A DNA stretch of 64,000 nt from Candidatus Magasanikiibacteriota bacterium (GCA_030650025.1 JAUSEN010000007.1:9472-73471), one strand, 5' to 3'; positions 26,073 through 44,967 are shown, counted from the first letter of the stretch. Notes: a model not told the origin generated them from the sequence alone. Translations and numbers: made by a program.

Positions 26073-26101
26073 ATAATACTTTAGTTAGTTACCAGGGATT
26101 T

Positions 26102-26968: not shown

Positions 26969-27576
26969 TCGTGTCGTTTGGATTGGCCGCAGCCTTTGGC
27001 AGTGTAGTTTTTTGGTTGGTAGTAACTTGGTTACGAAGTAGTAAAATAAATTTTTATTTATTTATTTTCAAGAAATTTGATTTAGGGAGCTGGCTAGAGC
27101 GCAATTTTCGTCGCTGGTCAGCTGGCCAGCGCCGGGCGATAGAGCGAGATCTGCCGCAAGTTATCCATTTGTTTTGTCTAGAAATTTCCGCGGGCAATAA
27201 TTTAGCTATGGCTATGGCCGGAGTAGCCAGCGTTATAGACGGTTCGTGGTCTCAAGAATTAACCAAAATTTTGGTTCGTCATAATATGGGCATTAGTTTG
27301 AACGAGTCATTATTAATTTCGGCCGAAGCGCTCCGGAGCCCTGATTTTAGCCATTTTGTGTTGGCGCTCCGCCAGGCCGAGGCGCTTGGTGTTTCGCTTA
27401 CCGAGATGTTAACAATGGAAGCGAAATTGCTCACGTCCAAACGGCGCCGGGAAGCAGAAGAATTGGCCAGAAAGGCGTCGGTAAAAATTTCCGCGCCGCT
27501 GGTTTTGTGTATTTTTCCGGCTTTGTTGATTGTGTATTTAATGCCGGTAATTATTAATTTGCTCGAAACTTTATAG
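26935..27576 (+). CDS. tadC: Tad pilus inner-membrane platform protein TadC (GspF-like)
   Basis: Second GspF-like polytopic protein. It overlaps tadB by about 30 nt. Confidence 0.6.
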   Translation: MDIFHTKIETMIVSFGLAAAFGSVVFWLVVTWLRSSKINFYLFIFKKFDLGSWLERNFRRWSAGQRRAIERDLPQVIHLFCLEISAGNNLAMAMAGVASVIDGSWSQELTKILVRHNMGISLNESLLISAEALRSPDFSHFVLALRQAEALGVSLTEMLTMEAKLLTSKRRREAEELARKASVKISAPLVLCIFPALLIVYLMPVIINLLETL

Positions 27577-27578
27577 GT

Positions 27579-28037
27579 ATGAATGAATTGATTTTTGTTT
27601 GGGCGATAATAGTGGCCGGGGCAGGGGTATTTTATGATATCAAATATCGGATTATTCCCAATTGGCTGGCGTTAGGCGGATTAATCGGGGCTTTGATTTT
27701 AGCGTTTTTTGCGGGCGGGTGGTTGGAATTAGCTAGCCACGCGGCCGGGCTAGCGCTCGCCGGTGGCGCGTGGCTGGTTTTATGGCGAGCGAAAATAATG
27801 GGCGGCGGAGACCAAAAATTAATGAGCGCGCTTGGCGCTTGTTTTTCTTGGCCAACGGTTCAGTATTTTATTTTGTTTGTAGCTTTATGGGGCGGAGCGC
27901 AAGGAGGCCTGGCGATTTTAAGAAATCGATGGGCTAAGCGGAAGTCGGAAGGCGTTAGACCAGCGCCCAAAATTTTTATACCATATTCAGTGGCTATTTT
28001 TTTAGGTTTAATTACCAATATTGTGTTAATTTTTTAA
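27579..28037 (+). CDS. tadV: Prepilin peptidase CpaA/TadV (A24 family)
   Basis: Two catalytic Asp regions: FYDIKYRIIPNWL and GGGDQKLMSALGAC. Confidence 0.7.
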   Translation: MNELIFVWAIIVAGAGVFYDIKYRIIPNWLALGGLIGALILAFFAGGWLELASHAAGLALAGGAWLVLWRAKIMGGGDQKLMSALGACFSWPTVQYFILFVALWGGAQGGLAILRNRWAKRKSEGVRPAPKIFIPYSVAIFLGLITNIVLIF

Positions 28038-28089
28038 AAAGGGTATAATATTGTCAGTAATATTTTTTGACATAATTTCGTTAAATCAT

Positions 28090-28572
28090 ATGATTTTTCA
28101 AAAGCCAGCGGTTAAACAAAGTGATTTTTCTATTTCGGCCCATCCCGAAGAACCGGGAGCGATCCGCGATGAAGTGGAAACGGTCGTGGGGCCCTCGGTA
28201 AATGTGGAGGGTGATTTTGGTTCGGAAGGCAATATTGTGGTAAAAGGGACGGTATCGGGGAGCGTGCGCACCAGTAAGCATTTGTTTGTTGAAATGGGAG
28301 CAAAAATAATGGCCAATGTCAAGGCGGGCACATCAAAGGTATCGGGCGAGGTCAAAGGAAATATTAAGGTTAAAGACACGCTAGAGCTGACGGCTACGGC
28401 GCGCGTTCTTGGAGATATTGACGCCAAAATTTTAATTATTGAAGCCGGAGCCATAGTATCGGGGCGCGTTAGCATGCCAGGGCTCGAAGGGGTAGACGCC
28501 AAAGCCGCGCCGAGGCTCGCGCGCCTCGGAGCCAGACGCCTTTCTGAAGAAGCTCCGGCCGTGACGCTTTAA
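28090..28572 (+). CDS. Bactofilin
   Basis: Repetitive beta-helix pattern (VKGTVSGSVRTSKHLFVEMGAKIMANVKAGTSKVSGEVKGNIKVKDTLELTATARVLGDIDAKILIIEAGAIVSGRV). The ATG at 28090 is in the TTTCGTTAAATCATATG context. Confidence 0.75.
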   Translation: MIFQKPAVKQSDFSISAHPEEPGAIRDEVETVVGPSVNVEGDFGSEGNIVVKGTVSGSVRTSKHLFVEMGAKIMANVKAGTSKVSGEVKGNIKVKDTLELTATARVLGDIDAKILIIEAGAIVSGRVSMPGLEGVDAKAAPRLARLGARRLSEEAPAVTL

Positions 28573-28576
28573 ATTT

Positions 28577-29383
28577 TTGGCGAGGCTTTTCAGGAAAGCG
28601 CCAGAGAAAACGCCCGGTATGTATGTATACATTTACGACAATTGGCTCCGCGCAAAAAAATTTGCGTCCACGGTTAAAGCGATGGAAATTCGTTTAACCG
28701 ATTTTGGCATTGCCGGCAAAATAGTGCGTCTCCAAAATTACACGGACGCGAAAGCGCTGATTGATGACGAGGTGCGCCGCGGCGCCAAAACTATCGTGGT
28801 GGTGGGGAATGATAAAACTTTTGGCCAAATTTTGTCTGGGGCCGCGACGGCGGGCTGTATTTTTGGCTTTTTGCCGGTGGGCGGAGATAACACGATTGCC
28901 GAAGTTTTAGGCATACCCATTGGGGCGGATGCCTGCACCGTGCTGTCGCGGCGGCGCATAGAAAAGCTCGATATTGGCTGGGTCAATAACCGCTATTTTG
29001 TTTCGCAATTAAAGGCCGGCCCGGGGCAGTTGGAAGTTTTTTATGATGAGCGTTTTCGAGTCACCGGCCAAAATTTATTAGAGGTGGTAGTGTGCAATTT
29101 ACAGCCCTGGTTTTGGAAGCGGAATAGCCAAGATCGGAATTTTGAGGTCGTGCATCCGCAAGACGGAAAATTGGAAGCCTGGCTCCGGCCCTTGACAAGG
29201 AAGCGTTTCTGGGGCTATTCTTACGAAGATCCGAGTATTTTTCCATTTTCGGAAATGGAGATTAAAAGCCAGGAGCCGTTTACCGTCGAGGCGGACGGGA
29301 AAATTACTAAAGAGATTCGCATTAAAATAAAGCTAGCGCCCGAGAGAGTCAACATGATAGTAGGAAGGGATCGGAAGTTTTAA
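28577..29383 (+). CDS. Diacylglycerol/lipid kinase catalytic-domain protein (YegS/BmrU-like); start uncertain
   Basis: DAGK_cat signature TIVVVGNDKTFGQ...LPVGGDNT. Confidence 0.55.
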   Translation: MARLFRKAPEKTPGMYVYIYDNWLRAKKFASTVKAMEIRLTDFGIAGKIVRLQNYTDAKALIDDEVRRGAKTIVVVGNDKTFGQILSGAATAGCIFGFLPVGGDNTIAEVLGIPIGADACTVLSRRRIEKLDIGWVNNRYFVSQLKAGPGQLEVFYDERFRVTGQNLLEVVVCNLQPWFWKRNSQDRNFEVVHPQDGKLEAWLRPLTRKRFWGYSYEDPSIFPFSEMEIKSQEPFTVEADGKITKEIRIKIKLAPERVNMIVGRDRKF

Positions 29384-29387
29384 AAAT

Positions 29388-29471
29388 GCCCAGGTGGCGA
29401 AATTGGTAGACGCACTACCTTGAGGTGGTAGCTCCCGCAAGGGAATGGAAGTTCGAATCTTCTCCTGGGCA
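29388..29471 (+). tRNA. tRNA-Leu (anticodon GAG)
   Basis: Cloverleaf traced: acceptor GCCCAGG/CCTGGGC, anticodon stem CTACC/GGTAG with loop TTGAGGT, long variable arm and T-loop TTCGAAT. No CCA is encoded. Confidence 0.85.
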
Positions 29472-29612
29472 CGAAAAAGAAACGAAATCTTTTTCTGGTT
29501 TTTTTGGTTGGTAGTACAGGAAGCCGCGGTATACGCCGAGCTCCCTGGTTCGGACAGCTTTTGACGTCATACTTTTCCGCGCTACGTCCGTAATATTGCT
29601 AGAGAAAAGTGA

Positions 29613-29642
29613 TTGACAGTGCGCGCTAATTTGTGAGATACT
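29613..29642 (+). promoter_or_regulatory. Sigma70-like promoter TTGACA-N18-GATACT
   Basis: TTGACAgtgcgcgctaatttgtgaGATACT. There is no CDS downstream before the terminator at 29736. Confidence 0.4.
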
Positions 29643-29735
29643 AACTTTGCGCCGTTATCTCAAAATATATCTTCTCACTTATTGTTGGCTATGTCGCTTT
29701 TATTACCACATTACAACAGCGTTGTCTTAATGCCC

Positions 29736-29768
29736 AACTCCTCATCAAATGAGGAGTTTTTTATTTCA
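29736..29768 (+). terminator. Rho-independent terminator
   Basis: AACTCCTCAT-caaa-TGAGGAGTT followed by TTTTTATTT. Confidence 0.75.
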
Positions 29769-29887
29769 CCAGAGTTATCAACATGGCCGTGTTGACACGT
29801 TTTGTTTCCCCGTGCTATGTTTACTGTTAAGTAACATTTTAAAGGTATATTATTTAGTTTATATTTTCAATCAATTTATCAAATCAT

Positions 29888-32800
29888 ATGTTTTATCGCC
29901 GGTTCCAAAAAATACTTATTTCTATAGTAGCCCTGCAAATGATTATTATGCCGGTCGTTCCGGCGTTAGCAGATGAGATCACGTCAACCGGCACTTCCAC
30001 TCCGCCCGCTTTAGCCCCAGCAGAACCACCCAAAAAAGATGATTCGCCCTTTTCGGCCCGCCAACTTATGCGCGAGTACCAGTCGTTTATTAGCGCTGAA
30101 AAAAATAAAAATAATTCCGCCGCCAAAGTTGCCTTAGCCGGCAAATTAGACGCTTTGATGGAGAGTGAGAGTAAAAGTTTAAGCGCGCTCGGCGTCGATG
30201 CCGAACGCCAGGCGCGATATTTTGGCCAACTCCAAACCATGGCGGAAATTTTAGACCCGGCGCGCCAGAGTTTTGTAGACAAAAAAGTTGGCGATCTTAA
30301 GGCCTGGCTGGGCCTCAAAAAACCCGACCAGTCAACGGACGAAGCAAACCGTCCGGATATTGTCATACCCGCAAAACCAGCCAGTTTTAGATTCAACAAC
30401 GCGCCCATTGAACTGAACAAAATTAAACTGGGGGAGTATCCATCTATGGCCAAACGGTTATCGCTCCGCGCGCGGGTTCGCGATATATTTTCCATTGACC
30501 AAGCGCTGGCCGGCCCGCTCACTCTGCCCGTGCTGGCAGATGTAGAGCCGGATGGAGCGCAGGTGGTTAGCGCGGCGCAATTTACCGATCTGGCCCAATC
30601 GCTCCACAACAACCCGCTGGAAATATACAACTACGTCCGCCAGACCATTTCCTACGAAGCCTATTACGGCGCTAAAAAAGGCGCGCTCGGCTGTTTTAGA
30701 GAAAAATTTTGCAATGATGCGGACGCCAGTTCACTCCTAATCGCCCTTTTGCGCGCGGCCGGTATTCCGGCCCGCTATGTAAAAGGCGTGGCCGTACTGC
30801 CGGTAGAAACCGCCCGCCAGCTCGTGGGCGTGGACGAAACCAAAACCGCCTACGCCGCCCTGTACGCCAACCGCGTGCCGGTGTTTTTAGTGTCCGGCAA
30901 CAATGTGGGGCCCAATTACGATCAGGCTGATTTTTCTCAAGAAAAATACTTTGGCGTGGAGTGGGTGAGCGTGGAAGCCTTTTATGATTACGATGAACGA
31001 GGCGGCAATATCAACAACACGTTAAACCTCTCTACGGCCACCACCACTGAATCGCTCCAGGCCATTCTCCAACAGGCCAGCCCCGAAAAGCAGTGGATTC
31101 CACTTGACCCAATGGTTCAACCGTCCGTTCGCACGGTAAACGAAATCGTGGCCGATACCGCCCAATTTAATTCGCAAACATTTTGGAATGATTACCTTAA
31201 ATATCAAGGTCCGCTTTCGCCTCTCAACAAATACGCGGCGGATTTAAAAAACCAAACCAACAAAGATATTTTCTCCGACCAGTTCCAGTCCAGCGCCGCG
31301 CCCCAGTTTAGCGCCGCGCGCCTGCTACCTGCCACCTTGCCCTATAATTTTACCAGCGGCCTTAAAGATGGCGATTTGCCGATTGCCAAAGAATACTGGT
31401 CAATTCTGCCAAACGACCGCCAAGAAAAAGTTATTATTACGCTTAAGCGCGCCGGGAATAATGAAGCAGTGATAACGCATACCTTTTTAGCCAGCGAGGC
31501 CAACAACCAGCCGATTGATTTGTCTTACGCCGGTGCTACTCCGGATGACCAGGCGGTGATTGATGGCTACGGCGGCCTGGCCTACACTCCGGCCGCGTTG
31601 GTAGATATTTTGCCATCTTTCACCCTCGCCAACACTACGGTGCCGGGCAACATCAAGATGGCGATCGGGGATTCGCTCATTATGCAGTTTGAATATCAGA
31701 GCAACGGCCAAACGATTGAAACCAACCAAAAATTTTCCGTGGCCGGCAATGCCGAAGGTATTTATATGGCCTTTTCGCAAATCGTGCCCGACCCCTCGCT
31801 CGTAAACAATAGCCAAATTTTATTCGCCGGCAACGCGGCCATCGCCCGGGCCTATCTCAATCGTCTGGCGGCCGACAACGCGGTTCTGGCCAAATCGCTG
31901 GATTATCAGCTCAACACCGAGTTTGCGCGCGCCGTGGTTACGCAAAATCGCGTGCTCTCTAAAGTTAATGACATTCCCACCACCTTTGATTTTAAAGGCC
32001 TAACGATTGACGCGGGCGCGGTTATTAATGACTATTCGCGCCGCGGCAATTACAAAAATCATCGCCTAGATTTCCGCTTGCTTTCCGGCCAAAACGCCTC
32101 GTACTACGAAGGCCAGCTTTTCACCGATCTCGCGGGCTTAAACGGTATTTCTACCATCAAAGGCTTGCAATACGCCTACGCCAACCCCAACGACTATACC
32201 GTGCACACCATCACCAAGGCCAACGAGGCCGACATTGACGCGTTACAGCTCTCGGACAACACTAAACAAAACCTGCACAGCGAAGTGGCCAAAGGCAACA
32301 CTATCACCACGCCCAACAAACCCATTGCCAAGGGCGCGTTTACCGGTATTGTCTACACCAGCATCGCGCCAAACGGCACCGGCCTCTATGCCATTGGCGA
32401 GCAGGTGGCGAATGGGGGGTGGACCGTGAACCCGGTTGTGCTGGCGCAACTGCAGAGCGATGTTGATAACAGCGTACTAGAGAGTTTTCAGGTGGATGAT
32501 GGCAACAATACTTTTGTGTACCGGGATAAATTATCAGGCAGTATTGATTGTCGTATCAACAGCAATACTTTCGGACGCATTTTGGCCAATAAGGATAAGG
32601 CTGGCCAGCCGATTCCGGCTGGCGAGGCAGAATGGAAAACCCGCTATGGCTGGCCGTGCGTTGATGATAATGAGAACGGGCCATATAAGTTTGGAGATTA
32701 TGAGCATGATTTTTTGGTAGCTACTGATGGGGCCAAGTTCACCAGTCCGGGGAGGTATGAATACTGGGTTAATGATACTGCGGTTGAAAATCTTTTTAAG

Positions 32801-34336
32801 ACAAAATTTGACTTTAATAACGGTAATTATTCATTGCGAAATGTTCGTACATATTGGGGTACGTATATTTATAAAGAGAATTGGGAAACTCACAACTTGC
32901 GTGAGTTAGGCGTATATAATCCAGAGCACCGCAAGGTATATGAAATGCCGATTTTTAGGAATGGAGAAAAATACTTATCGGCGGATAAAATTGAAGGTAA
33001 ATTCGTGCCGGAATTGATTGGTTATCCAATGAGCGAAAATAAGACGGCGGCTCTTTCCCCAAACGGTACCGACGGCTACTATCAGCAATTTACCAACGGC
33101 ACTATGTATACCAGGCCATCTCTTTCAACGTTTTGGAAGTCACTGGTGGTCTATGGTAAATGGAACGATATCCATAACCAGCAGGGCGGTACGGGCGGTA
33201 TAGGTTTCCCGGATAGTGATACTTTTTTTGATCAGCCATATAATGCGATTATTCAGAAATTCGAGAAAAAGATTTGTTATGACAAGAATGGAATTATTTG
33301 CGAAAATAGAATTTGGAAAGCAGATTTTCAGAGAGGATTGGATTCGTTTTATGACTCTTTCCAATTAATGAGTGTTGCCTATACCATATATAAAAATAAT
33401 GTCATGCAAGAAAGTTACGCGCAATTTTTGGTCGCAGTAGATTTAGCCAATGATACTCGGGAGGAAAGAAAGAACCTGTGTTATCTTTACAATGCTGAAT
33501 ATTCTCAACCCCTCTTTCTCTACCCCGCTCTCTATGCGGACGCGCAATGCGTTTTTCCCAAAAGCTTGGCTTATTACCAATCTAAGAAAGCGGATGCGCA
33601 GAATAAAATTAACGACCTCGGTCAAAAAACTACCGCCAGTGTTCAACAAGCTGAACAACTACACCTTTCGTTGGTGAGCCAGGTAGAAAATGGCGTTCAG
33701 ACTCCGTTTGAGTGGCTCGGTTTTATGGTGGTGGACTTGGGGACAGTGGTAGTTGGTCCCGCCTCCAAACTGGGTGTCAACGCCGCGAAACAGGTCGCTT
33801 TGAAAATGACCGCACGCTATGGCGCGGAAATTATGTCGGCGCGGATTAATCGTGCGCTTCTAATGAAGGCCACGAAGAAAGCGGCTGAAAGAGAGCTGGC
33901 ACAGCAGGGCGCCGCCGCCACCGAGTCGGCGCTGGAGGTACGATTGGAAAGAGCGGTATTAGGAGAGTTAAAGGGGGCGGGATTGGCTTATGTTGAACGG
34001 CGAGGTATAAAAGTGCCGATGGATTTGGCAAAACAGTTGCCTGGGAAGTGGTATAAATCAACTTCTTCTGATGTCGTGGATAGTTTTGCGAAACATTGGC
34101 AGAAACACGGAGTATTAGAGATGGAAAAGAAAAAATTGCCTCTTAAGACAATCCAAGAGTATTTTGATGATTCGAAGAATTTTTATAATCAGTATAAAGG
34201 ATTAAAAACTTCTGTAACACTTGACGATTTGACCGAAGGTATATTAATTAGACAGCCAGGGCAACCGGGCGGCTATTTTACCGGTCCCGGTCATCCGATG
34301 GGTGAAGGGCTAGCGGTTACTTTTTGGTATTTCTAG
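29888..34336 (+). CDS. Giant secreted protein (1482 aa) with a transglutaminase-like cysteine protease core
   Basis: N-terminal signal/anchor MFYRRFQKILISIVALQMIIMPVVPALA. Transglutaminase-like core GALGCFREKFCNDADASSLLIALLRAAGIPARYVKG. The start is in the AAATCATATG context. Confidence 0.6.
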   Translation: MFYRRFQKILISIVALQMIIMPVVPALADEITSTGTSTPPALAPAEPPKKDDSPFSARQLMREYQSFISAEKNKNNSAAKVALAGKLDALMESESKSLSALGVDAERQARYFGQLQTMAEILDPARQSFVDKKVGDLKAWLGLKKPDQSTDEANRPDIVIPAKPASFRFNNAPIELNKIKLGEYPSMAKRLSLRARVRDIFSIDQALAGPLTLPVLADVEPDGAQVVSAAQFTDLAQSLHNNPLEIYNYVRQTISYEAYYGAKKGALGCFREKFCNDADASSLLIALLRAAGIPARYVKGVAVLPVETARQLVGVDETKTAYAALYANRVPVFLVSGNNVGPNYDQADFSQEKYFGVEWVSVEAFYDYDERGGNINNTLNLSTATTTESLQAILQQASPEKQWIPLDPMVQPSVRTVNEIVADTAQFNSQTFWNDYLKYQGPLSPLNKYAADLKNQTNKDIFSDQFQSSAAPQFSAARLLPATLPYNFTSGLKDGDLPIAKEYWSILPNDRQEKVIITLKRAGNNEAVITHTFLASEANNQPIDLSYAGATPDDQAVIDGYGGLAYTPAALVDILPSFTLANTTVPGNIKMAIGDSLIMQFEYQSNGQTIETNQKFSVAGNAEGIYMAFSQIVPDPSLVNNSQILFAGNAAIARAYLNRLAADNAVLAKSLDYQLNTEFARAVVTQNRVLSKVNDIPTTFDFKGLTIDAGAVINDYSRRGNYKNHRLDFRLLSGQNASYYEGQLFTDLAGLNGISTIKGLQYAYANPNDYTVHTITKANEADIDALQLSDNTKQNLHSEVAKGNTITTPNKPIAKGAFTGIVYTSIAPNGTGLYAIGEQVANGGWTVNPVVLAQLQSDVDNSVLESFQVDDGNNTFVYRDKLSGSIDCRINSNTFGRILANKDKAGQPIPAGEAEWKTRYGWPCVDDNENGPYKFGDYEHDFLVATDGAKFTSPGRYEYWVNDTAVENLFKTKFDFNNGNYSLRNVRTYWGTYIYKENWETHNLRELGVYNPEHRKVYEMPIFRNGEKYLSADKIEGKFVPELIGYPMSENKTAALSPNGTDGYYQQFTNGTMYTRPSLSTFWKSLVVYGKWNDIHNQQGGTGGIGFPDSDTFFDQPYNAIIQKFEKKICYDKNGIICENRIWKADFQRGLDSFYDSFQLMSVAYTIYKNNVMQESYAQFLVAVDLANDTREERKNLCYLYNAEYSQPLFLYPALYADAQCVFPKSLAYYQSKKADAQNKINDLGQKTTASVQQAEQLHLSLVSQVENGVQTPFEWLGFMVVDLGTVVVGPASKLGVNAAKQVALKMTARYGAEIMSARINRALLMKATKKAAERELAQQGAAATESALEVRLERAVLGELKGAGLAYVERRGIKVPMDLAKQLPGKWYKSTSSDVVDSFAKHWQKHGVLEMEKKKLPLKTIQEYFDDSKNFYNQYKGLKTSVTLDDLTEGILIRQPGQPGGYFTGPGHPMGEGLAVTFWYF

Positions 34337-34416
34337 AAAAATATGTATTTTAAATGGGTTTATAAAATAAAAAATGACGACAGAAATCACAGGACGAATT
34401 AATTTTTTCCATTGTT

Positions 34417-35400
34417 ATGGTTGTATTGGATGAAATCAGTGAACCAATTAGCTTAGGCCACGACTATGATTTAATAGATGGTCATGTTGTATTTGATAGA
34501 GCAGTCGGTGTGCTGGGTGCAGATGTTGAATCATTCCAAGACATAGGTGGCCGTTATGGGAAAGACAAACAAATGGTTTATTACATGGCAGAACCAGTGC
34601 TGATAATTGATGCAAAAACAGTCGTCTATTTGGGCGATGGCTATATAAAAGATAAGAGACAAGTCTATTGGTGTGCCGAATCTATCCCTGGAGCCGATCC
34701 GGGAAGTTTTGTAGTTTTAGATTATGGATACTATGCGAAAGATAAGAATAATATTTATTATGGGCGTGAGATTATTGCTAATGCGGATCGGAAAAGTTTT
34801 GTGGTTTTAAATTTTGATTATGCAAAAGATGTAAATTACGGATATTATCATTCTGAACGTTTTAATGTAGCCGAGGATTTTACTGCATTAAAACATACAA
34901 ATTACGCTAAAGACAAACATTCAGTTTTTTATTGTACTCAACCTATCCCTGGAGCCGATCCGGAAAGCTTTGTTAACATTGATTATGAAAAATACGCCAA
35001 AGATAAACAGTCTGTTTACTATCGCGGTCAACCTATCCCTGGAGCCGATCCGGGAAGTTTTGTTGTTCTTAAACATGATAATTATGCTAAGGATAAAGAT
35101 AAAATTTATTTTGATGGTAAAATTATTGAAAATTGCGATTATAGAAGTTTTATAATTTTGTCACCTTGTTATGCTAAAGATGAAAAGTCGGTCTTTTATG
35201 GTAACAAATCAATCGCCGGTGCTCACGTTAAAAGCTTTAAATTGATTGACGGTAATTATTATTATGCCAGAGATAAGAGGGCAATTTATTATGACGGCGA
35301 TGCGATTGTAGGTGCAGATTATGGAAGTTTTTATGTGAGAGGCGTTACATCTGCATACGATAAATTCGGTAAATTTGATCGGGGAAATAGAATAACTTAA
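34417..35400 (+). CDS. DKNYY-repeat family protein
   Basis: At least 8 repeats of YAKDK(N/Q/D)xxYY.G..I.GADP.SFxxL. The region is AT-rich. Confidence 0.6.
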   Translation: MVVLDEISEPISLGHDYDLIDGHVVFDRAVGVLGADVESFQDIGGRYGKDKQMVYYMAEPVLIIDAKTVVYLGDGYIKDKRQVYWCAESIPGADPGSFVVLDYGYYAKDKNNIYYGREIIANADRKSFVVLNFDYAKDVNYGYYHSERFNVAEDFTALKHTNYAKDKHSVFYCTQPIPGADPESFVNIDYEKYAKDKQSVYYRGQPIPGADPGSFVVLKHDNYAKDKDKIYFDGKIIENCDYRSFIILSPCYAKDEKSVFYGNKSIAGAHVKSFKLIDGNYYYARDKRAIYYDGDAIVGADYGSFYVRGVTSAYDKFGKFDRGNRIT

Positions 35401-35428
35401 AATTATCCAGCATGGTATTAATAAAAAT

Positions 35429-35710
35429 ATGTCTGACCTTGGCCTTATTGGAGTTGAGGAATTGGTGAAACATTATAATAAATATAAGGTAAATCAAATT
35501 GTGTTGGATAAAATTATTAATGAAGAAGCCCTTGGTTTGGTACAAAATGAAGGCAAGCAAGCATTCGTGAAGTCTGGTCTAAATCGTATGGTCGATTATA
35601 TTGTTGAAGCGACAGGTAGAAACGTGCAGCAAATCAATGTGGGGGATATCGTATTAGACCCAAATTACGGCTCTGGTAAATATTTTAATGTTACTTATAT
35701 TTTAAAGTAG
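35429..35710 (+). CDS. Hypothetical small protein that shares a motif with the next gene
   Basis: DLGLIGVEELVKHYNKYK recurs as DFGLIGVEEFIKHYDKYK inside the 254-aa neighbour. Very AT-rich. Confidence 0.4.
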   Translation: MSDLGLIGVEELVKHYNKYKVNQIVLDKIINEEALGLVQNEGKQAFVKSGLNRMVDYIVEATGRNVQQINVGDIVLDPNYGSGKYFNVTYILK

Positions 35711-35712
35711 TT

Positions 35713-36477
35713 ATGTTGCATACGTTATCAGTTGTTGAGCTTTTAAATAGCTTTAATTCAATAAGTAAAAAAAAGATTTACAAAAATCAATATGTCGCCA
35801 TAAAAGGATTCATGCACGGTGAGTATTTATTTAATTCAGAAAAGGATTGGCAAGAAAAGACCGAAAATTATATCAGATTCAGTCATCGCGTTAGAGGTGG
35901 GATATTACGAAAGTTATTTAAGAAGAAGTTATTAGATGATATGAGTGGCGATGTTGTAATAATAGGCAAAATCATTCGATATACATATACAGAAATTGAT
36001 CATGTGGTGGCTGGAAAATTATTAAATAAATCTGGAGAAGAAATTAACTTTGTACAATTAGAAAAAGAAAACATGCCTCTTATGTTGCGAGATAAAAATT
36101 TGTTTGATTTTGGCCTTATTGGAGTTGAGGAATTCATCAAGCACTATGATAAATATAAGAGATGTTATGTTTATTTAGAAGGATACTATGAAAATTATTT
36201 AATATATCCTACAGAAAAGAAAAAAGAGGTTGGTGGGGTCAGTGTTGATAGGGATATACATTTCCATTCCAGTATAGATTATTTTTTAAAAAAGATGGCA
36301 ACGCAGTCTTATACTGGAAGGATTCGTATTGTGGGTAAAGCGGGGGTTGCAATGACAAACGTTAAAAATATAGGGCAGATTCTTAAAGTTGAATTGGTGG
36401 ATGATAAAGGAAATATAATAAATAGCGCAAAAATCAACGAAAATTCGATACCAAAAGAGTTGAGGCATATTATTTAG
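35713..36477 (+). CDS. Hypothetical protein, paralogous segment to 35429..35710
   Basis: Contains the LIGVEE.IKHY.KYK motif mid-protein. Very AT-rich, with no known domain recognised. Confidence 0.4.
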   Translation: MLHTLSVVELLNSFNSISKKKIYKNQYVAIKGFMHGEYLFNSEKDWQEKTENYIRFSHRVRGGILRKLFKKKLLDDMSGDVVIIGKIIRYTYTEIDHVVAGKLLNKSGEEINFVQLEKENMPLMLRDKNLFDFGLIGVEEFIKHYDKYKRCYVYLEGYYENYLIYPTEKKKEVGGVSVDRDIHFHSSIDYFLKKMATQSYTGRIRIVGKAGVAMTNVKNIGQILKVELVDDKGNIINSAKINENSIPKELRHII

Positions 36478-36554
36478 ATGCCTGATAAATATGATGGAGA
36501 TGGATAATCATTAAAACAGGAAGATTAATTTTACTACTATTTAAACCCAACCAT

Positions 36555-37280
36555 ATGTCCACCAAAAAACTCCTCGTCCTCGCCTTGCCTGCTTTATGTT
36601 CGGCCATATTTTTAATAGGCGGCACAGCGCAAGCCGAAACAGTTAGTTCTTCGGTGGCTGGCTTTAGCCTAAAAGCCGGCACTTCCGACCCGGTGATCAG
36701 GAATATTACCATTACTAACCCGCCAGTTTCTGTTTCTGGGACTATTTCCGGGACTATTATTGTAGGCAATGTTTTTGGATTTCGCAGTCCATCGTATACT
36801 GCTACTGCTCCGGCTATCATCTCGGCGACGGCTACTACTCGCGGCTCTTCGGCTACCACCGCCGATATTTCCATTGGCGTTATCGCGCCTGTCGGTTCGT
36901 CTGTCGCCGGGAGCAATGTCATTATTATTAACCCCGCTACGATTCCGGCTACCTCTGCCACTGCGCCAAACCATCAACCGGCCCCGGTGGTATTACTCGC
37001 GCCAGCCCGCCAAGATACCCTGGCTGAAGTCGCCAAACCACAATCTTCGGCTGTCTCCTCGGCGTTAGTGGTTGAGCCAACCGCGGCCGAGCAAGCCGAA
37101 ATTGCCGCCTGGTTTGAAGATAAAAAACCGGTTGAAAAGAAGATAATAAAAAAGACAATTAAAAAAACCGTCGCCACTAAAAAAATTATCGCCGCTAAAA
37201 AAGTTGTTAAGAAAAAAACCGTAAAAATTATCAAACAGTCGGTTGTTAAAGTCAAGAAAAATTCCGCGCCAGCCAGATAA
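36555..37280 (+). CDS. Secreted Ser/Thr/Ala-rich protein with a Lys-rich (histone-H1-like) C-terminal tail
   Basis: Signal peptide MSTKKLLVLALPALCSAIFLIGGTAQA. C-terminus KKPVEKKIIKKTIKKTVATKKIIAAKKVVKKKTVKIIKQSVVKVKKNSA. Antisense ORFs across it are GC-skew artefacts. Confidence 0.45.
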   Translation: MSTKKLLVLALPALCSAIFLIGGTAQAETVSSSVAGFSLKAGTSDPVIRNITITNPPVSVSGTISGTIIVGNVFGFRSPSYTATAPAIISATATTRGSSATTADISIGVIAPVGSSVAGSNVIIINPATIPATSATAPNHQPAPVVLLAPARQDTLAEVAKPQSSAVSSALVVEPTAAEQAEIAAWFEDKKPVEKKIIKKTIKKTVATKKIIAAKKVVKKKTVKIIKQSVVKVKKNSAPAR

Positions 37281-37317
37281 AAGAATAACAAAATTTTAAT
37301 CCTTGGCAATAAATTGT

Positions 37318-40300
37318 ATGGAAACCATCCCTCAAAAATACGCCAGCCAGTTCCGCCGTTTTGTTTCACTGCAAATTATTGCCGGAATGATAATAAGTCT
37401 GGCCGGGCCGTTTGCTCCGGCGGTTTTGGCCGCTCCGGTTGCCAAAACCAAGCCCGCTCCGAGCGCTCTGCCGCCGTCATCCGCGAGCGCGGAACCGGTT
37501 GACTGGTCCGCCGTGGATTGGGATTCAGCAATCGTAACGATCGCCGATCAGGAAAAATTTGTATCTGCCAGGCAAGCTTTGGCCGAACAGGGAAAGGCGG
37601 CCGAGGCCAAGGCGCTCGAACCAGCGCAAACGCTCCTTAGCGACGACGCGCTGATGAAAAAGAGCGGCGTGCCCGAGGCGGCACAGATTCTGGTGCGAAA
37701 TTATCGCGAGGCAATAAAAGATTTGGGGGCTGATAAGGCGAGCGCGGCGCGCCATTCTGCGGAGCGCGAATATCTTAAGAATGCTTTACGCGTTCTTTTC
37801 CCATCCATTGCCAAACAGGATAAATTGCCGAAGGATCAGGTGATTGATTTCCGCGCGGCTCCGCGCCTCCACCCGCGCTCGGCTCAAGGAGTCAAAATAC
37901 TCAATGTCAAACCAACCGTTAAAGTTATCAATCAAACCACGGCGCCTCAATCCGCCCAAATTTTGCGCGGCGCGACAGTGCGGCAATTGCGCGCGCTTAA
38001 ACAAAAAGATTATTCTCTCCCGGCCGATACCAAACCGGTTTCTGTTCAGAACAGTGGAATTTTGCGCGCCTTCTTTGACAGCCTGTTTAGTATTCCGGCC
38101 GCGAACGCCGCCACGCCCATTATCGCCTACAGCAATGGCATAGAAAAAAAACCGCTTGATTATGCTCTGTACTATCTGGCTAACCAGCAAAATCCCGATG
38201 GCAGTTTTGGCATTGTTGATCCCTATATCAATACTATGGCGGCGCTAGAGCTGTTGGTTGATACCAATCGCACCAACAACGATCAGTACACGAGCGCGTT
38301 AAACTATTTACAGCAAACCGCGCCAGCCAATAATCGTGAAATTGCCACCCAGGCGCGCCTTTTGTTTGGCATTGGCAAAGCGCCGTCTGCCAACATCCTG
38401 CTAGACGGCTTAATGCCCAGCCAAAACAGCGACGGTGGTTTTGGCGTTTTGCCCGGCTATCAAAGCGATCTAGATTCAACTCTGGCCGCCGCCTTAGCGA
38501 TGGCGGCGGGCAATTACAGTATGAATGATAAGTTTCCCAAGACTATGGTATTTGTAGTCAATCACATTCCCGATTCTGGCGAACTGCGCTACACGGCCGA
38601 CAGCAACCCCAATTATTACCTTATCAATCAAACCGCGCAACAACTGGCGCCGTTTGCCGGGCTCACGGTTAGCGATGGACAAAACCAGGTAACCGTCCAG
38701 TCTAAAATTGACGCGCTGTTAAATTATTTGCGCTTCCAATACGACCCGGCCGAACAAAAATTGTTGGGCGCGGACGCAGCCGATAATATTATGACGCTGG
38801 AAACGTGGCGGCTTTACGGCGTAGAAAAACCTTCGGCCGCTGTTTTAGAAAAAATCGTATTAGAAAGCCAATTCGGCGATGGGTCGTTCGCTGATTCTTT
38901 CCCGATGGCCGCGCACGCCATCTACGCCCTGGCCGCGCCGGATATAATTATTACCAACGCCGCGCCCGACAATAATTTAGTTAACTATAGCGCGGCTGGT
39001 TTTTCGCTGACTATTATCAACAATGGCTACGCCACTCTAGCCACTAGCACGCTCTATTTGTTTGTGGACAATGTAGAAACCGGCCAAAATATCAACCTTC
39101 AGGATGATCAAATTACCATTTTGCCTAACCAAACTCTGCAGCTGCGCGTTACTTACCCCGACACCCCCGGCTGGATTGGCGATACTGAATTGCGCTGGTA
39201 TTTGGAAGGCGAGCGGGATTTAAATTATGACGACAATTGGTTGGTTAAAAATTTTGCGGTCGCGAGCGAGGCCAACGGCAAACCGGCTCTCCCTGGCTAT
39301 TTTTCCGTGTTTAAATATGATTATGATGGAATGCCGGCGATTATCGCCGGCATTCCGGCCAGCAAAACCGATCCTAACCGCAAGGGCTATGGACTGCTGT
39401 TTCGCCCTAAAGGATTGCCCGATTGGGAATATATGCCGTATGATCCAAAATACGTCATTATCGCTGGATTCCCCGAAGGCGCCGAGTATGAATTTACGAT
39501 CGGCGTAATAGATTTGGGCGGCGCGATTAGATATTATGACCAGCCGGTTACGGTAAAATTTTCAGCCGACAGCAGTAAATACAATGGCGCTCTGGAGGGG
39601 CGAATAACGCTGGACAATGCCGGCCACTCCGGCCTCTCATTTTTTGTGCAAGGCCAAGACACTTCACGGCCGGACGAAAACGGCGATTGGTTCAGCACCA
39701 CCAGTCCCAATGGGCGCGTGGCGGCGTGGAGTTTGGACAAAATGAATCAGGAATTGCGTTCTACCTTTGATGTCGCGCCCGGCGCCACCACTACTCCGGC
39801 GCGGATATTTACGCATCTAAAAGAAGACGCGGCCGCCCCGGTTATAGCTGGATTTGAAATTCGCTTTAAGCAGAATTTTATCGTCAAAAACCAAAAAGAA
39901 GTGGACCTGTACGCCTGGGGAAGCGATAATGTCGCGCTTAAGGAAGCGGATTTTTATTTGTGGAATCCGGCTGACAGCGCTTGGAGTTTTCTCGGCACCC
40001 AAGCGATCCCCGACAGCACAGCCTTATTTAAATGGTACGTGCCGGCGGATTTATTGGGCGAAAATTATAAAGTGAAGGCGATATTTTGGGATTACCGCGG
40101 CAACCAGTCGCTGGCCAAAGAATGGGGGCCGTTTAAAATTATTGACGGCACCGCGCCAACCTTTACCGTTACCGCGCCCGCCGCCGGCTTGCCCTGGGAG
40201 CTGGGCAAGCCGCAAACCATCGCCTGGACCACTTCTTCCACTAACCCGGTCAATTTTGTGAATATCGTTCTGCGCTACAGCCCGGTGGCGACCGAATTTC

Positions 40301-42186
40301 TTGCCGCCAACACGGCTAACTCTGGCACCATGGTTTGGACTGTGCCGACCAGTTCGTGGTATGCCGGAAAAAATGTTACGCTGGAAATCAGCGGCACTGA
40401 CAGCGGCAACTTTGAAACCGGAACGTCAGTTAGCGCGCCATTTGATATTTTAGATACCTTGGCAAATCCGCCCGCTCCTTGGGGCGCGCCCGAGGTTTGG
40501 CTGAACGACCAGGAAAATCGCAGTGTGTATTTAAGCAAATCCGAAGTGGCCATAAGTTCGGACTCGGCTGGCAGTGATCATTTAGTGTACAAGGTGACGG
40601 CCGATAATAATTTTGCCAGTCCGCGCGTAATTACCGAACAGCTTTGGTATCGTCAAAAAACTGACGGTTTTTGGTCGCAAGCGATAAAAATATATGAAAC
40701 AGTTTTGGCCACCGACAATAATTTGACGGGGTACGCGCCAATTAACAGTTTAGCGATGGCCTTGAATTCGGCCCACGTTCCGAGCTTAGTTTGGAAAAAA
40801 GGCAGTTCCGGCAGTTGTCTTGACTACAATAGCACGGAAATCTTTTTTGCGTCTTTAAATAAACAAACTGGGCAATTGGATGCTCCGCTAAACATATCCA
40901 ATAATGTCAGCGATTCCCAGGCGCCCCAGATTAGCGCCAGCCAAAGTGGATCAGTGCAGACCGCTTGGCTCGACGGCCGCGTTTGGGACGACCAGTGCTC
41001 GGTAACCGGCACGCTAACCGTCCGCTACCGAGAGTTGACTGATAATGTTTGGTCTGGAGTGGAGCAAATCGGCAACAATGTGCCCCTTTATAACCCGCGT
41101 CTGGCCACTTTAGGCTCTGTAGTGTATCTTGGCTATAACAACGATCAAAGCGTTGTCAGCCTGGCGCGCCGCGAGGCCGGCGTTTGGGGGACACCGGTAA
41201 ACCTATTGGCACCTGGCGGCAGTCTGCAGGACTTTAATTTCGCGGCCGGCATCAATAATGATCTGCATCTGGCCATGACCTTGTTTTCGTACGATCCGAA
41301 TCTCAAAAAATACTACAATCAGATTTCCTATCGGACTTTTGCCAACGGCGTCTTTGGTCCGGCTGAAGCTGTCGCTACCACCGTGCCCGGGACAAATGAC
41401 AGCCTTTATCGTCCGCTGATTGCCGTTGATCAAAATGGCGTGCCGCATGTGCTGTATGAACATTATTACAATCCGGGTGGTCGGTTTGAGCCGCGCTATA
41501 CGGCGCGTTGGCCGCTTGGTTCCTGGGCCGCGTCCCAGCCGGCGGCGCGCGCCAGCAATAATGTGAGCGGGCATCATCTGGGCTTTTCTTATCAGCCGGT
41601 TTCGCGCCAGCTGACGGCCGCCTGGCTCGATGGCTATGCCAGAGCCGACGAGGTTTTTGTAAATAATGCCGCTCCGCCATCCGCCACGGCCATAATCTAC
41701 GAAGACGCCGAAGACGGCGATACGGTGGGGTGGAAGCTTTACGCTCCCGGGTTTTCCGGCACTTATTCCATTGCTAACGTAGCCGATGATAAGGCGCACG
41801 GCCGCGCTTTGGAAGTTAAAACCAGCTATATTGAAAATGATTATTGGCTGAAGAATCCGGACGGTTCCAACTGGAATGACACTGTTTCCAAATATCTCCA
41901 ATGGGACGTTAAAACCAGTCGGGAGTTTTATGCTCTGGTTCACGTGGAAACTAATCTCGGCCCGCGGCATTTGCAGTACTCGTCAAAATATCCGAATAAA
42001 GTTTTGGGCTCTTATATTTACCTCAACCTTTCGCCGAGTCTTAAAGACGGAAGTTGGCACACCCTTACCCGCGATTTGCAGGCCGATGCCGCCTTGCTCG
42101 TGCCGGGTATTGTGATTACCAAAATTAATAGTTTCTCGGTGAGCGGTTACAGCGCGCGTTTTGATAATATTATCGGGCTTAAGTAG
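37318..42186 (+). CDS. Giant extracellular protein (about 1622 aa) with prenyltransferase/terpenoid-cyclase-like alpha/alpha-toroid repeats
   Basis: N-terminal anchor/signal (FVSLQIIAGMIISLAGPFAPAVLAA). Repeated Q-x-x-DG-S/G-FG motifs (QNPDGSFG, QNSDGGFG, QFGDGSFA). The ATG at 37318 is preferred over the TTG at 37303. Confidence 0.55.
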   Translation: METIPQKYASQFRRFVSLQIIAGMIISLAGPFAPAVLAAPVAKTKPAPSALPPSSASAEPVDWSAVDWDSAIVTIADQEKFVSARQALAEQGKAAEAKALEPAQTLLSDDALMKKSGVPEAAQILVRNYREAIKDLGADKASAARHSAEREYLKNALRVLFPSIAKQDKLPKDQVIDFRAAPRLHPRSAQGVKILNVKPTVKVINQTTAPQSAQILRGATVRQLRALKQKDYSLPADTKPVSVQNSGILRAFFDSLFSIPAANAATPIIAYSNGIEKKPLDYALYYLANQQNPDGSFGIVDPYINTMAALELLVDTNRTNNDQYTSALNYLQQTAPANNREIATQARLLFGIGKAPSANILLDGLMPSQNSDGGFGVLPGYQSDLDSTLAAALAMAAGNYSMNDKFPKTMVFVVNHIPDSGELRYTADSNPNYYLINQTAQQLAPFAGLTVSDGQNQVTVQSKIDALLNYLRFQYDPAEQKLLGADAADNIMTLETWRLYGVEKPSAAVLEKIVLESQFGDGSFADSFPMAAHAIYALAAPDIIITNAAPDNNLVNYSAAGFSLTIINNGYATLATSTLYLFVDNVETGQNINLQDDQITILPNQTLQLRVTYPDTPGWIGDTELRWYLEGERDLNYDDNWLVKNFAVASEANGKPALPGYFSVFKYDYDGMPAIIAGIPASKTDPNRKGYGLLFRPKGLPDWEYMPYDPKYVIIAGFPEGAEYEFTIGVIDLGGAIRYYDQPVTVKFSADSSKYNGALEGRITLDNAGHSGLSFFVQGQDTSRPDENGDWFSTTSPNGRVAAWSLDKMNQELRSTFDVAPGATTTPARIFTHLKEDAAAPVIAGFEIRFKQNFIVKNQKEVDLYAWGSDNVALKEADFYLWNPADSAWSFLGTQAIPDSTALFKWYVPADLLGENYKVKAIFWDYRGNQSLAKEWGPFKIIDGTAPTFTVTAPAAGLPWELGKPQTIAWTTSSTNPVNFVNIVLRYSPVATEFLAANTANSGTMVWTVPTSSWYAGKNVTLEISGTDSGNFETGTSVSAPFDILDTLANPPAPWGAPEVWLNDQENRSVYLSKSEVAISSDSAGSDHLVYKVTADNNFASPRVITEQLWYRQKTDGFWSQAIKIYETVLATDNNLTGYAPINSLAMALNSAHVPSLVWKKGSSGSCLDYNSTEIFFASLNKQTGQLDAPLNISNNVSDSQAPQISASQSGSVQTAWLDGRVWDDQCSVTGTLTVRYRELTDNVWSGVEQIGNNVPLYNPRLATLGSVVYLGYNNDQSVVSLARREAGVWGTPVNLLAPGGSLQDFNFAAGINNDLHLAMTLFSYDPNLKKYYNQISYRTFANGVFGPAEAVATTVPGTNDSLYRPLIAVDQNGVPHVLYEHYYNPGGRFEPRYTARWPLGSWAASQPAARASNNVSGHHLGFSYQPVSRQLTAAWLDGYARADEVFVNNAAPPSATAIIYEDAEDGDTVGWKLYAPGFSGTYSIANVADDKAHGRALEVKTSYIENDYWLKNPDGSNWNDTVSKYLQWDVKTSREFYALVHVETNLGPRHLQYSSKYPNKVLGSYIYLNLSPSLKDGSWHTLTRDLQADAALLVPGIVITKINSFSVSGYSARFDNIIGLK

Positions 42187-42287
42187 GCGACCGCGCGATC
42201 TTTTTGGCGGCCAACGGTCTGACCGAAATAGTTTTTGTTGCGGATTTTTTTGAATTCCTATATACTTAAGAGCGATTAAGATTAAGT

Positions 42288-42452
42288 ATGTCCGTAATTG
42301 TTGAGTCCATCCAAGCGCTTTTGCATTCCGCCGGAGTAACCGGCGATATTGAATTAGCCGCCCCGCCTAAACCCGAGCTGGGCGATTTTGCGTTTTCCTG
42401 TTTCGCGCTCGCCAAAGAGCAGGGTGAGCCTGGTTGTATAACCGCACAATAA
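42288..42452 (+). pseudogene. Possible remnant of the arginyl-tRNA synthetase N-terminal domain (54-aa ORF)
   Basis: Translates to MSVIVESIQALLHSAGVTGDIELAAPPKPELGDFAFSCFALAKEQGEPGCITAQ. The pattern M.I..+I..+L..AG...+.E+.+P..PE.GDFA.+.+.LAK..G.+P resembles the ArgRS N-terminus. It terminates after 54 aa with no continuation. Confidence 0.3.
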
Positions 42453-42593
42453 AGTAAATGTCATAAATCAAGCTTAATAAATGGCTTGGTTTTTTGTTTT
42501 AGAGTGCCTTGCGGCACAGGTTTTGTTGTGGTAAAATAGCTTAAAGATAACTCAAGATAAATAATTAGATGGTTTTAAACGTATAACTAGCTT

Positions 42594-42836
42594 ATGCGAT
42601 ATTTTATCGGTATTATTAGCGCGCTTTTGGGTGTTGGCATGATCTTAAAAACCGAGTGGATTATTCAAAATTTTGGCACGAGCTCTTGGGCCGAGGCGAA
42701 AATGGGCACCAGTGGCGGAAGCCGCATGCTTTACAAATTAATCGGTTTGGCCATTATTTTTATTGGTTTTCTTCTTGTTACCAATATGTTTCAGGGTTTT
42801 TTGATGGGAACATTGGGGCGAGTTTTAATAAGGTAA
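42594..42836 (+). CDS. Small hypothetical membrane protein with two TM helices
   Basis: Two hydrophobic helices, ORF only. Confidence 0.35.
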   Translation: MRYFIGIISALLGVGMILKTEWIIQNFGTSSWAEAKMGTSGGSRMLYKLIGLAIIFIGFLLVTNMFQGFLMGTLGRVLIR

Positions 42837-44276: not shown

Positions 44277-44388
44277 CAGCGCGGTTTTTTTTTGTTATAC
44301 TGTGACCAGTTTTAAATTTACATTAAGGAAGCGTCGAAACTAACTGTGGTTAGTTTCGACGTGAATTTCCTTGCGAAAGAAAATTCAT

Positions 44389-44967
44389 ATGAATTTTAAG
44401 AAAGAGCGAACGTATGTAATGATTAAGCCCGACGGCGTCCGAAAGGGCTTGACTGGCGAAATTATTCGCCGTTTTGAGCAACGCGATTTAAAGGTGGTGG
44501 CGCTTGAGATGTTCCAACCCACTAAAGATCAAATTGATAACCACTACCCCAAAGACGAAGCGTGGCAACGCCGGCTGGGGCAAAAAACTCTCACAACTTA
44601 TGCCAAGTATGGTATTGACGCGGTTAAGGACTTGGGGACCGACGATGATTTAGCAATCGGCAAAATGGTCCGGGGGTGGCTTTTGGATTTTATGACTTCG
44701 GCGCCACTGGTGCGTATGGTGATAGAAGGCGTGCACGCGATTGATATGGTGCGCAAGATTTGCGGCAATACACTCCCTAATCTGGCCGACATGGGCACAA
44801 TTCGAGGAGACTATAGCGCGGATTCTCCGGCCGTGGCTAATTCCGAGCACCGCGCGGTCATGAACTTAGTGCATGCTTCGGAGACTGTGCAAGAAGCGGA
44901 ACACGAAATTAAGCATTGGTTTGGCGACCGGTCGGTGATTTTTGAGTATAGCCGCTTGACGGATTAA
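44389..44967 (+). CDS. ndk: Nucleoside diphosphate kinase with an approximately 50-aa internal insertion
   Basis: ERTYVMIKPDGV N-terminus and the active-site region NLVHASET. The ATG at 44389 is in the AATTCATATG context. Confidence 0.85.
   Translation: MNFKKERTYVMIKPDGVRKGLTGEIIRRFEQRDLKVVALEMFQPTKDQIDNHYPKDEAWQRRLGQKTLTTYAKYGIDAVKDLGTDDDLAIGKMVRGWLLDFMTSAPLVRMVIEGVHAIDMVRKICGNTLPNLADMGTIRGDYSADSPAVANSEHRAVMNLVHASETVQEAEHEIKHWFGDRSVIFEYSRLTD

Follow-up and report, generated by a model that had tools for sequence, protein, structure and literature searches.

This study concerns a 64,000-nt stretch of a metagenome-assembled genome (MAG) of Candidatus Magasanikbacteria, one of the Candidate Phyla Radiation (CPR) lineages; the whole stretch is called the window, and coordinates are window positions unless a locus is named. 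Positions 29473-42592 were found to be a lineage-specific insertion of 13.1 kb at a variable site just 3' of the gene for tRNA-Leu(GAG), and it is very probable that the best explanation for this island is an inserted polymorphic toxin-immunity module with a conserved giant partner. The presumed toxin, a 1482-aa protein that we call TOX, and the partner, GIANT2, are the first and the last of six co-directional open reading frames (ORFs) that follow the tRNA gene with short gaps. The features are given below; ORF, tRNA and Pfam checks recovered every item that an initial annotation of this DNA had listed.

29388-29472 (+): tRNA-Leu(GAG), identified with ARAGORN and Rfam; last backbone feature and left boundary
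29473-29887 (+): non-syntenic leader of TOX, 415 nt, without counterpart in relatives
29888-34336 (+): TOX, predicted Sec-type secreted polymorphic toxin, 1482 aa; 46 full-length homologues
29888-29974 (+): putative signal peptide of TOX, about aa 1-29; hydrophobic segment
30455-33307 (+): conserved scaffold of TOX, aa 190-1140 (AlphaFold2, Foldseek and BLASTP)
30584-30847 (+): transglutaminase-like core of TOX, aa 233-320 (Pfam, Foldseek and hidden Markov model (HMM) alignment)
33020-33166 (+): LGFP repeats of TOX; Pfam-located repeat, aa 1045-1093, within a domain of about aa 1010-1130 (profile and fold)
33278-34015 (+): linker or pre-toxin region of TOX, aa 1131-1376 (BLASTP extents)
34016-34336 (+): putative toxin tip CT-A, 106 aa, aa 1377-1482 (profile search, AlphaFold2 and Foldseek)
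34417-35400 (+): DKNYY-repeat protein, 327 aa (Pfam)
35421-35488 (+): 68-nt direct repeat, with its partner at 36092-36159 (self-BLASTN and codon alignment)
35429-35710 (+): 93-aa ORF, a chimeric orphan (similarity to CT-B tips)
35713-36477 (+): 254-aa ORF, tandem-duplicated immunity-like protein (four-domain alignment)
36555-37280 (+): 241-aa secreted-looking low-complexity protein with a Lys-rich tail (composition)
37303-42186 (+): GIANT2, 1627 aa from a TTG start or 1622 aa from the first ATG; conserved neighbour of TOX
42288-42452 (+): 5' fragment of argS, 54 codons (Pfam); right end of the insertion
42594-42836 (+): tm80, small membrane protein; the backbone resumes here, right boundary

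Variable C-terminal tips in the TOX family

Homologues of TOX, 46 of them full-length, were found in Magasanik-, Peregrini-, Komeili-, Uhr- and Gracilibacteria. They aligned with TOX only from aa 1 to about 1111-1160, at approximately 40% identity by BLASTP, and the tails beyond this point, which were 270-450 aa long, fell into at least 14 unrelated clusters. Precomputed Pfam assignments placed EndoU_bacteria in the tails of eight homologues; NAGPA was also present, as were weak matches to Tox-REase-7 (restriction-endonuclease-like) and AHH. The type of tip was decoupled from the similarity of the scaffold: only 15 of 45 homologues had the same tip as their nearest scaffold neighbour, and pairs with 70-76% identity in the scaffold, including P0010 and P0011 (76%), bore different tips.

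The first downstream ORF started between -8 and +33 nt from the toxin stop (24 loci). When the downstream genes of two loci belonged to the same family, the tips were of the same type in 17 of 19 locus pairs, a count that was reached in none of 100,000 permutations (permutation mean, 1.7). Further pairs of tip and downstream gene were observed in loci L043, L118, and L119. Orphan arrays, in which toxin tips (EndoU, CT-A) alternated with small ORFs, occupied L043 1-3913 and L118 1-1472; the ORF after the EndoU tip was homologous between L043 and L118, and that after the CT-A tip in L043 was homologous to its counterpart in L119.

A shared N-terminus with unrelated tips, tips occurring on other scaffolds, a co-varying downstream gene, and orphan cassettes are the features used to recognise polymorphic toxins (Zhang/Aravind 2012), and each of them was found in this family. 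The reading of TOX as a polymorphic toxin with a constant region and an exchangeable tip is strongly supported, and the toxin/immunity cassette suggested in the initial annotation was supported by the unrelated tips, their covariation with the downstream gene, and the presence of CT-A on other toxin scaffolds. No paper describing the TOX family was found in the literature searched.

The commonest tip, carried by 16 of the 46 homologues (among P0009-P0046), has conserved PHP..L and SGH[YF] motifs, and no Pfam model matched it.

Constant region of TOX

The exact 1482-aa protein is recorded at NCBI as 'transglutaminase family protein' in a Candidatus Magasanikbacteria MAG. Its N-terminus is hydrophobic over aa 9-27 (Kyte-Doolittle mean, 2.44), which fits a signal peptide, and a cleavage site, ...PALA/DE, was read by eye from the sequence. 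Transglut_core was located at aa 233-320 with a Pfam expectation value (E) of 3e-10, and the domain matched 3ISR with a Foldseek probability of 1.0. In the HMM alignment, the catalytic Cys of 3ISR ('GVCRDFA') was aligned to Asp277 of TOX, which is invariant in the family. The catalytic His is apparently replaced by Val357 in the CPR family, whereas proteobacterial relatives keep it as 'EHIW' in the motif alignment. These replacements suggest that the transglutaminase-like domain is catalytically degenerate. TOX had initially been described as a secreted transglutaminase-like Cys-protease; the signal segment and the transglutaminase-like core agree with this description, whereas the protease part has lost its catalytic Cys.

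The AlphaFold2 model of aa 190-1140 had a mean pLDDT of 89.8. Foldseek found only the transglutaminase-like and LGFP parts of this scaffold, and its beta-rich middle had no meaningful match in the PDB. Homology to proteobacterial RHS toxins (P0048-P0084), in their N-terminal parts, covered aa 196-846 of TOX; in the Pfam search, RHS_repeat, TEN_YD-shell, and DUF6531 were absent from TOX and were present only in distant relatives.

The constant region is closed by LGFP repeats. In the single TOX sequence these were below the Pfam threshold (17-20 bits), and the family profile matched the LGFP domain of Corynebacterium glutamicum PS1 (6SWZ) with an E of 5e-15, together with a Foldseek E of 2e-6. 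In PS1, the LGFP domain binds the cell wall. The linker following the repeats, aa 1131-1376, was common only to P0002-P0004 by BLASTP. Neither a TPS secretion domain, FHA repeats, nor a CdiB transporter was detected by Pfam in TOX and its neighbours.

The CT-A tip

The last 106 residues of TOX constitute the tip designated CT-A. An exhaustive profile search yielded 105 representatives, which were almost always located at the extreme C-terminus; the host proteins included those of the RHS (8), PT-HINT (4), PT-TG (2), and DUF637 (1) types. No Pfam or NCBIfam model matched the tip. The AlphaFold2 model, with a mean pLDDT of 96, consisted of two helices followed by a four-stranded sheet, and its best match in Foldseek was CdiA-CT 8EY4 (probability 0.94, TM 0.64), followed by CdiA-CT 6D7Y and the RelE-family RNases BrnT and YoeB. 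Since the E-values of these matches were not significant (the best was 0.19), the fold class is called probably RelE/CdiA-CT-like, and we infer that CT-A would most likely act as an RNase. W1388, H1403, Y1425, and D1428 were invariant among the representatives and H1407 was nearly invariant; of these, His1403, Asp1428, and His1407 are the candidate catalytic residues.

The AT-rich cassette

A conspicuously AT-rich segment had been noticed by eye at 34400-36500. Sliding analysis of the guanine-plus-cytosine (GC) content agreed with this observation and placed a sharply bounded block at 34050-36450, where GC was 0.29-0.37 compared with 0.48 in the flanks. The lowest 2-kb interval was 34601-36600 (GC 0.329, z = -7.4), and the tetranucleotide distance in the block was z = 5-7, with a peak of z = 7 over 34-37 kb. 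The cassette had a GC of 0.31-0.36 and a GC at third codon positions (GC3) of 0.25-0.32. The values for the individual segments were as follows.

TOX aa 1-1130: GC 0.500
TOX linker: GC 0.467
Last 106 codons of TOX: GC 0.403
DKNYY gene: GC 0.357 (GC3 0.25)
93-aa ORF: GC 0.348
254-aa ORF: GC 0.308
241-aa ORF: GC 0.491
GIANT2: GC 0.517
Flanks: GC 0.481

The gene following TOX encodes a DKNYY-repeat protein (PF13644), as had been annotated; the Pfam match had an E of 1e-50 and a score of 172 bits against a cut-off of 25. No hydrophobic segment was found in the protein. A DKNYY gene is the first gene after the toxin both in the window and in the Komeilibacteria locus L004/L006, which has the same tip type. 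In view of this position, we consider the DKNYY protein, with moderate confidence, to be a cytoplasmic candidate for the cognate immunity protein of CT-A.

The next two ORFs were related to loci carrying a second tip, CT-B, whose full length is about 165 aa. Codons 21-93 of the 93-aa ORF correspond to the last 73 aa of CT-B; identity was 66% with the end of toxin P0002 (L003) and 36% with that of the L011 toxin. The 68-nt repeat (35421-35488 versus 36092-36159, 85% identical) takes in codons 1-20 and the 8 nt preceding the ATG, and copies the DNA at which domain 2 of the 254-aa ORF begins. The 254-aa ORF itself is a tandem duplication according to the four-domain alignment, with domain 1 at about aa 2-131 and domain 2 at about aa 132-254. 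The CT-B toxins of L003 and L011 are each followed directly by a gene whose product resembles one of these domains, with 51% identity to domain 1 for L003 and 30% to domain 2 for L011. By these similarities, the 254-aa product is predicted to be an orphan immunity protein for CT-B-type toxins, and the two ORFs together represent what is left of a displaced CT-B cassette and an orphan immunity gene that has been kept.

The two small proteins had been proposed as a paralogue pair on account of a shared motif. The motif is real and is the 68-nt repeat, by which aa 1-27 of the 93-aa ORF align with aa 130-156 of the 254-aa ORF (BLASTP E 3e-8). The paralogue relationship was ruled out, the 93-aa ORF being an immunity start fused to a CT-B tip and the 254-aa ORF a duplicated immunity-like domain.

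GIANT2 and the 241-aa protein

Among the 19 CPR loci whose flank extended for 5 kb or more, 18 had a GIANT2 homologue adjoining TOX. The giants are therefore not independent cargo; they are a syntenic and conserved module across several CPR lineages, with the variable cassette inside. GIANT2 was downstream of TOX on the same strand in most loci and upstream in L020, and one to six small ORFs were located between the two genes.

The N-terminal segment of GIANT2 is hydrophobic and signal-like, and weak Pfam matches to CARDB and Kre9 Ig-like domains were obtained. The terpene-cyclase-like Q-x-x-DG-x-FG repeats that had been ascribed to this protein are supported as repeats only: the family profile matched SQHop_cyclase_C structures with an E of 3e-6 over only about 70 residues, and the Pfam match of the single sequence to SQHop_cyclase_N was below threshold (E 0.0016). 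GIANT2 is probably a surface protein that may aid target binding or delivery.

The 241-aa protein has the secreted appearance and the Lys-rich tail that had been noted, with a hydrophobic signal-like segment at its start and 20 Lys among the final 55 residues. It matched no family and was not conserved in other TOX loci.

Insertion between tRNA-Leu(GAG) and tm80

Relatives were collected by a metagenome scan with the flanking DAGK protein, which gave 73 loci with 41-75% identity in the best aligned segment. The right flank was usable in 38 relatives (DAGK 54-72% identical), and 25 of them (DAGK 60-72%) shared one backbone order. This order was bactofilin, DAGK, tRNA-Leu(GAG), tm80, methyltransferase, p130, UPF0102, NDK, M50, and onward, which is the order obtained when window 28051-29472 is joined straight to 42594 onward. 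The distance from the tRNA gene to tm80 was 0.01-2.2 kb in the 25 relatives versus 13.1 kb in the window, and neither TOX nor GIANT2 was present at this site in any of the 38 relatives with a usable right flank. In 36 of the 38, the tRNA after DAGK was tRNA-Leu(GAG), and the remaining two were not nameable by ARAGORN. DNA homology to the relatives ended at 29472-29482 in most loci and resumed, at both the DNA and the protein level, at 42592-42593. Because of the short gap in the relatives and the absence of the giants there, 29473-42592 is a lineage-specific insertion, as the island proposed after the tRNA-Leu gene had implied.

The interval between tRNA-Leu and tm80 held varied cargo in the relatives (L048, L050-L053, L063, L075, and L114), including a Schlafen-group-3-helicase-like protein in L051, a histidine phosphatase in L048, a Cys-rich secreted protein in L052 and L075, and a family of small, highly charged minus-strand ORFs. 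Since the cargo differs between relatives, the interval behaves as a hot spot. The island is an integrase-free insertion at this tRNA-adjacent hot spot in a CPR genome. Elsewhere, a tRNA gene was found just upstream in only one of 29 TOX loci.

A homologue of the NDK gene of the window (44371-44967) was observed 1-5 kb upstream of TOX in two other CPR genomes, at L018 4581-5009 and L026 8117-8560. Given this proximity, it may be that the TOX-GIANT2 module recurs in broadly similar genomic surroundings.

Proposed mechanism and alternative explanations

In the mechanism that we propose, TOX would be exported via Sec, and its LGFP and transglutaminase-like parts would anchor it to the cell wall. 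Upon contact with a neighbouring cell, either a competitor or a host, the tip would enter that cell, where CT-A, with its probable RelE/CdiA-CT-like fold and two invariant or nearly invariant His residues, would cleave RNA. The DKNYY protein, encoded immediately downstream and predicted to be cytoplasmic, would protect sibling cells. The AT-rich block would then be an exchangeable cassette composed of the tip, its immunity gene, and what remains of an older cassette; the retained duplicated CT-B immunity protein could provide protection from neighbours armed with CT-B, and GIANT2 may serve as the conserved partner for target binding or delivery. A bolder form of this proposal is that TOX and GIANT2 constitute an undescribed CPR-specific apparatus for contact-dependent delivery, with GIANT2 responsible for target recognition or translocation, which moves without a dedicated integrase, and that DKNYY is a new immunity class and CT-A a new RNase toxin family. 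In this full form the proposal is tentative and, in our judgement, doubtful.

Several findings weigh against an inserted toxin-immunity module as the explanation. On the toxin side, the Foldseek E-values of CT-A are non-significant, and its putative RNase activity is suggested by the fold class and the conserved His residues only. A DKNYY gene was found after a CT-A-type tip in only two independent genomes, and in the window its start lies 80 nt past the toxin stop, a looser coupling than in most loci. Other genes follow the closest CT-A relatives, namely one for a 162-aa protein after P0090 with a 134-aa homologue after P0089, one for a 244-aa protein after P0004, and one for a 111-aa protein after P0091. 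On the insertion side, domain searches including Pfam detected no recombinase or integrase domain in any of the six island ORFs, and self-BLASTN found neither a flanking direct repeat nor a repeat of the tRNA 3' end at the junctions. Of the tRNA integration hotspot put forward in the initial annotation, the hot spot with differing cargo stands, whereas the marks of tRNA-directed integration were not found. Finally, the fragment at 42288-42452 (Pfam Arg_tRNA_synt_N, E 2.6e-4) was 49-66% identical to full argS genes, which in the relatives are located upstream of bactofilin; no remaining part of argS was present within the 64-kb window, and synteny with the relatives also breaks left of bactofilin. 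The history of the locus therefore includes local rearrangement, and it is more complex than a single insertion.

Among the alternatives, the one that survives best concerns the target. The toxin might be aimed at a host bacterium, for predation or nutrient release, and not at kin, with the downstream gene acting only against self-intoxication during synthesis. CPR lifestyles are generally host-dependent, immunity genes would be needed for self-protection too, and none of the present data identifies the target. However, the intact orphan CT-B immunity gene is kept although the cell no longer makes the matching tip, which is best explained by attack from CT-B-armed relatives, and rapid turnover of tips and immunity genes among close scaffolds is a signature of intraspecific conflict (PMC3482391). 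An exclusively host-directed toxin is possible in the light of this evidence, and we regard it as unlikely.

The island might also be a surface adhesin or host-interaction island without toxin function, in which the variable C-termini would be receptor-binding and the downstream ORFs unrelated accessory genes. Such a role would accommodate the signal-like N-termini of both giants, the wall- or ligand-binding-type modules (LGFP, Ig-like/CARDB, and alpha/alpha-toroid repeats), the lack of an enzymatic signature in GIANT2 and in the beta-rich scaffold, and the general dependence of CPR episymbionts on surface contact. It is difficult to reconcile with tips that include the bona fide nuclease toxin family EndoU_bacteria as well as the weak restriction-endonuclease-like and AHH matches, with CT-A also ending RHS, PT-HINT, and CdiA-like toxins, with the covariation of the tips with a tightly coupled cytoplasmic downstream gene, and with orphan tip and immunity debris, which is typical of toxin loci. 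We consider an adhesin without toxin function highly improbable.

With regard to the insertion, an ancestral module at this site that was deleted in the sampled relatives has little to recommend it. The lack of an integrase and of a direct repeat would be expected in that case, TOX and GIANT2 are an old pairing with a wide distribution in CPR, and the argS fragment at the right edge indicates rearrangement and not clean integration. The closest available relatives are, moreover, only 60-72% identical in DAGK, so that gain versus loss was argued from parsimony and composition. Both of these disfavour deletion: the module is missing in all 38 relatives (DAGK 54-72%), in 25 of which tRNA-Leu and tm80 are nearly adjacent, and many independent and precise losses would be required. 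The GC skew of both giants is near zero or negative and deviates from the backbone (z = -3.3 to -4.9), the cassette deviates in GC and tetranucleotides, and the same interval carries unrelated cargo in the relatives.

An assembly artefact, in which the MAG contig misjoins a foreign toxin locus into the backbone, can hardly be credited: the composition of the segment is unlike its flanks and the Logan assembly breaks inside the tRNA-Leu gene, but this independent assembly of the same sample reproduced both junctions, in contig L001 (from inside tRNA-Leu, window 29439, into TOX) and contig L002 (DKNYY gene, GIANT2, argS fragment, and tm80, into the methyltransferase gene), and its break inside the island coincides exactly with the perfect 31-nt repeats at 34682-34712 and 35033-35063 within the DKNYY gene.

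Other features of the window

The leader of TOX contains promoter-like sites at 29613-29642 and 29792-29821, as found by consensus scans, and between them a strong terminator-like hairpin with a U-run at 29736-29758 (RNA folding, z = -2.5). The arrangement could represent a small transcript or an attenuator.

A Tad/type IV pilus cluster was present at 23231-28037, comprising two TadE-like genes, T2SSE, two T2SSF, and an A24 peptidase. Within 9.5 kb upstream of bactofilin in the relatives, neither this cluster nor anything upstream of it had a counterpart. Two adjoining cofactor-independent phosphoglycerate mutase paralogues of 531 and 527 aa were arranged in tandem at 19370-22551. The first 1000 nt of the window (1-1000) had a GC of 0.64 compared with the window mean of 0.48, and long ORFs overlapped there on both strands; neither Pfam nor Rfam gave a match in this segment.

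Implications and comparison with known systems

The genomes of CPR bacteria (Patescibacteria) measure about 1 Mb, and these cells are not known to possess the type 5, type 6, and type 7 (T5, T6, and T7) secretion systems that carry polymorphic toxins elsewhere. In the window, 13 kb of such a reduced genome is spent on a polymorphic toxin system, which suggests that contact-type weapons of a design not described until now exist in reduced CPR bacteria. If the proposed explanation is true, ultra-small episymbionts fight kin or hosts with exchangeable nuclease tips on a Sec-dependent, wall-anchored scaffold, and a widespread pair of giant genes labelled 'hypothetical' could be tested directly for its function. 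A tip family without a database model and a candidate function for the uncharacterised DKNYY family would likewise be open to experiment. The locus offers, in addition, a clean case of insertion without an integrase at a hot spot beside a tRNA gene.

As in tRNA-linked genomic islands, the island lies directly 3' of a tRNA gene, is missing from relatives, deviates in composition, and has other cargo in its place in other genomes; unlike them, it carries neither an integrase or other recombinase nor a direct repeat of the tRNA 3' end, and has an argS fragment at its right edge instead. The repeat domain that ends the constant region of TOX is similar to the LGFP domains of C. glutamicum PS1 and mycoloyltransferase A (6SWZ, 6SX4), whereas in TOX it is embedded in a putative toxin upstream of a variable tip.

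CdiA-CT/CdiI (8EY4, 6D7Y) provided the best, although non-significant (E 0.19), structural matches of CT-A. A relative of CT-A is located on a DUF637 (CdiA-type) protein, and arrays of orphan tips and immunity genes downstream of the main gene are another common trait. Unlike CdiA, TOX has no TPS domain, FHA repeat, or VENN motif and no accompanying CdiB gene.

WapA, of the WapA/WapI pair of Bacillus subtilis, is a Sec-dependent, cell-wall-associated polymorphic tRNase toxin. Compared by description only, the two systems share a monoderm-type envelope without T5, T6, and T7 and the combination of a signal peptide, a wall-binding module, and a nuclease tip that is exchangeable and lies next to an immunity gene, whereas WapA relies on RHS repeats and binds the wall through another type of domain.

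Polymorphic toxins in which an inactive transglutaminase domain at the N-terminus precedes RHS repeats have been described (Zhang, Aravind et al. 2012, PMC3482391). TOX resembles them in that its signal peptide leads directly to a transglutaminase-like domain with lost catalytic residues, and aa 196-846 are homologous; variable tips, downstream immunity genes, and orphan cassettes occur in both. Unlike those toxins, TOX has no RHS/YD repeats or shell and instead continues with a beta-rich scaffold and then LGFP repeats, and it is restricted to CPR lineages, where a second, conserved giant gene accompanies it. The system is a new architectural variant of polymorphic toxin-immunity systems with a conserved giant partner.

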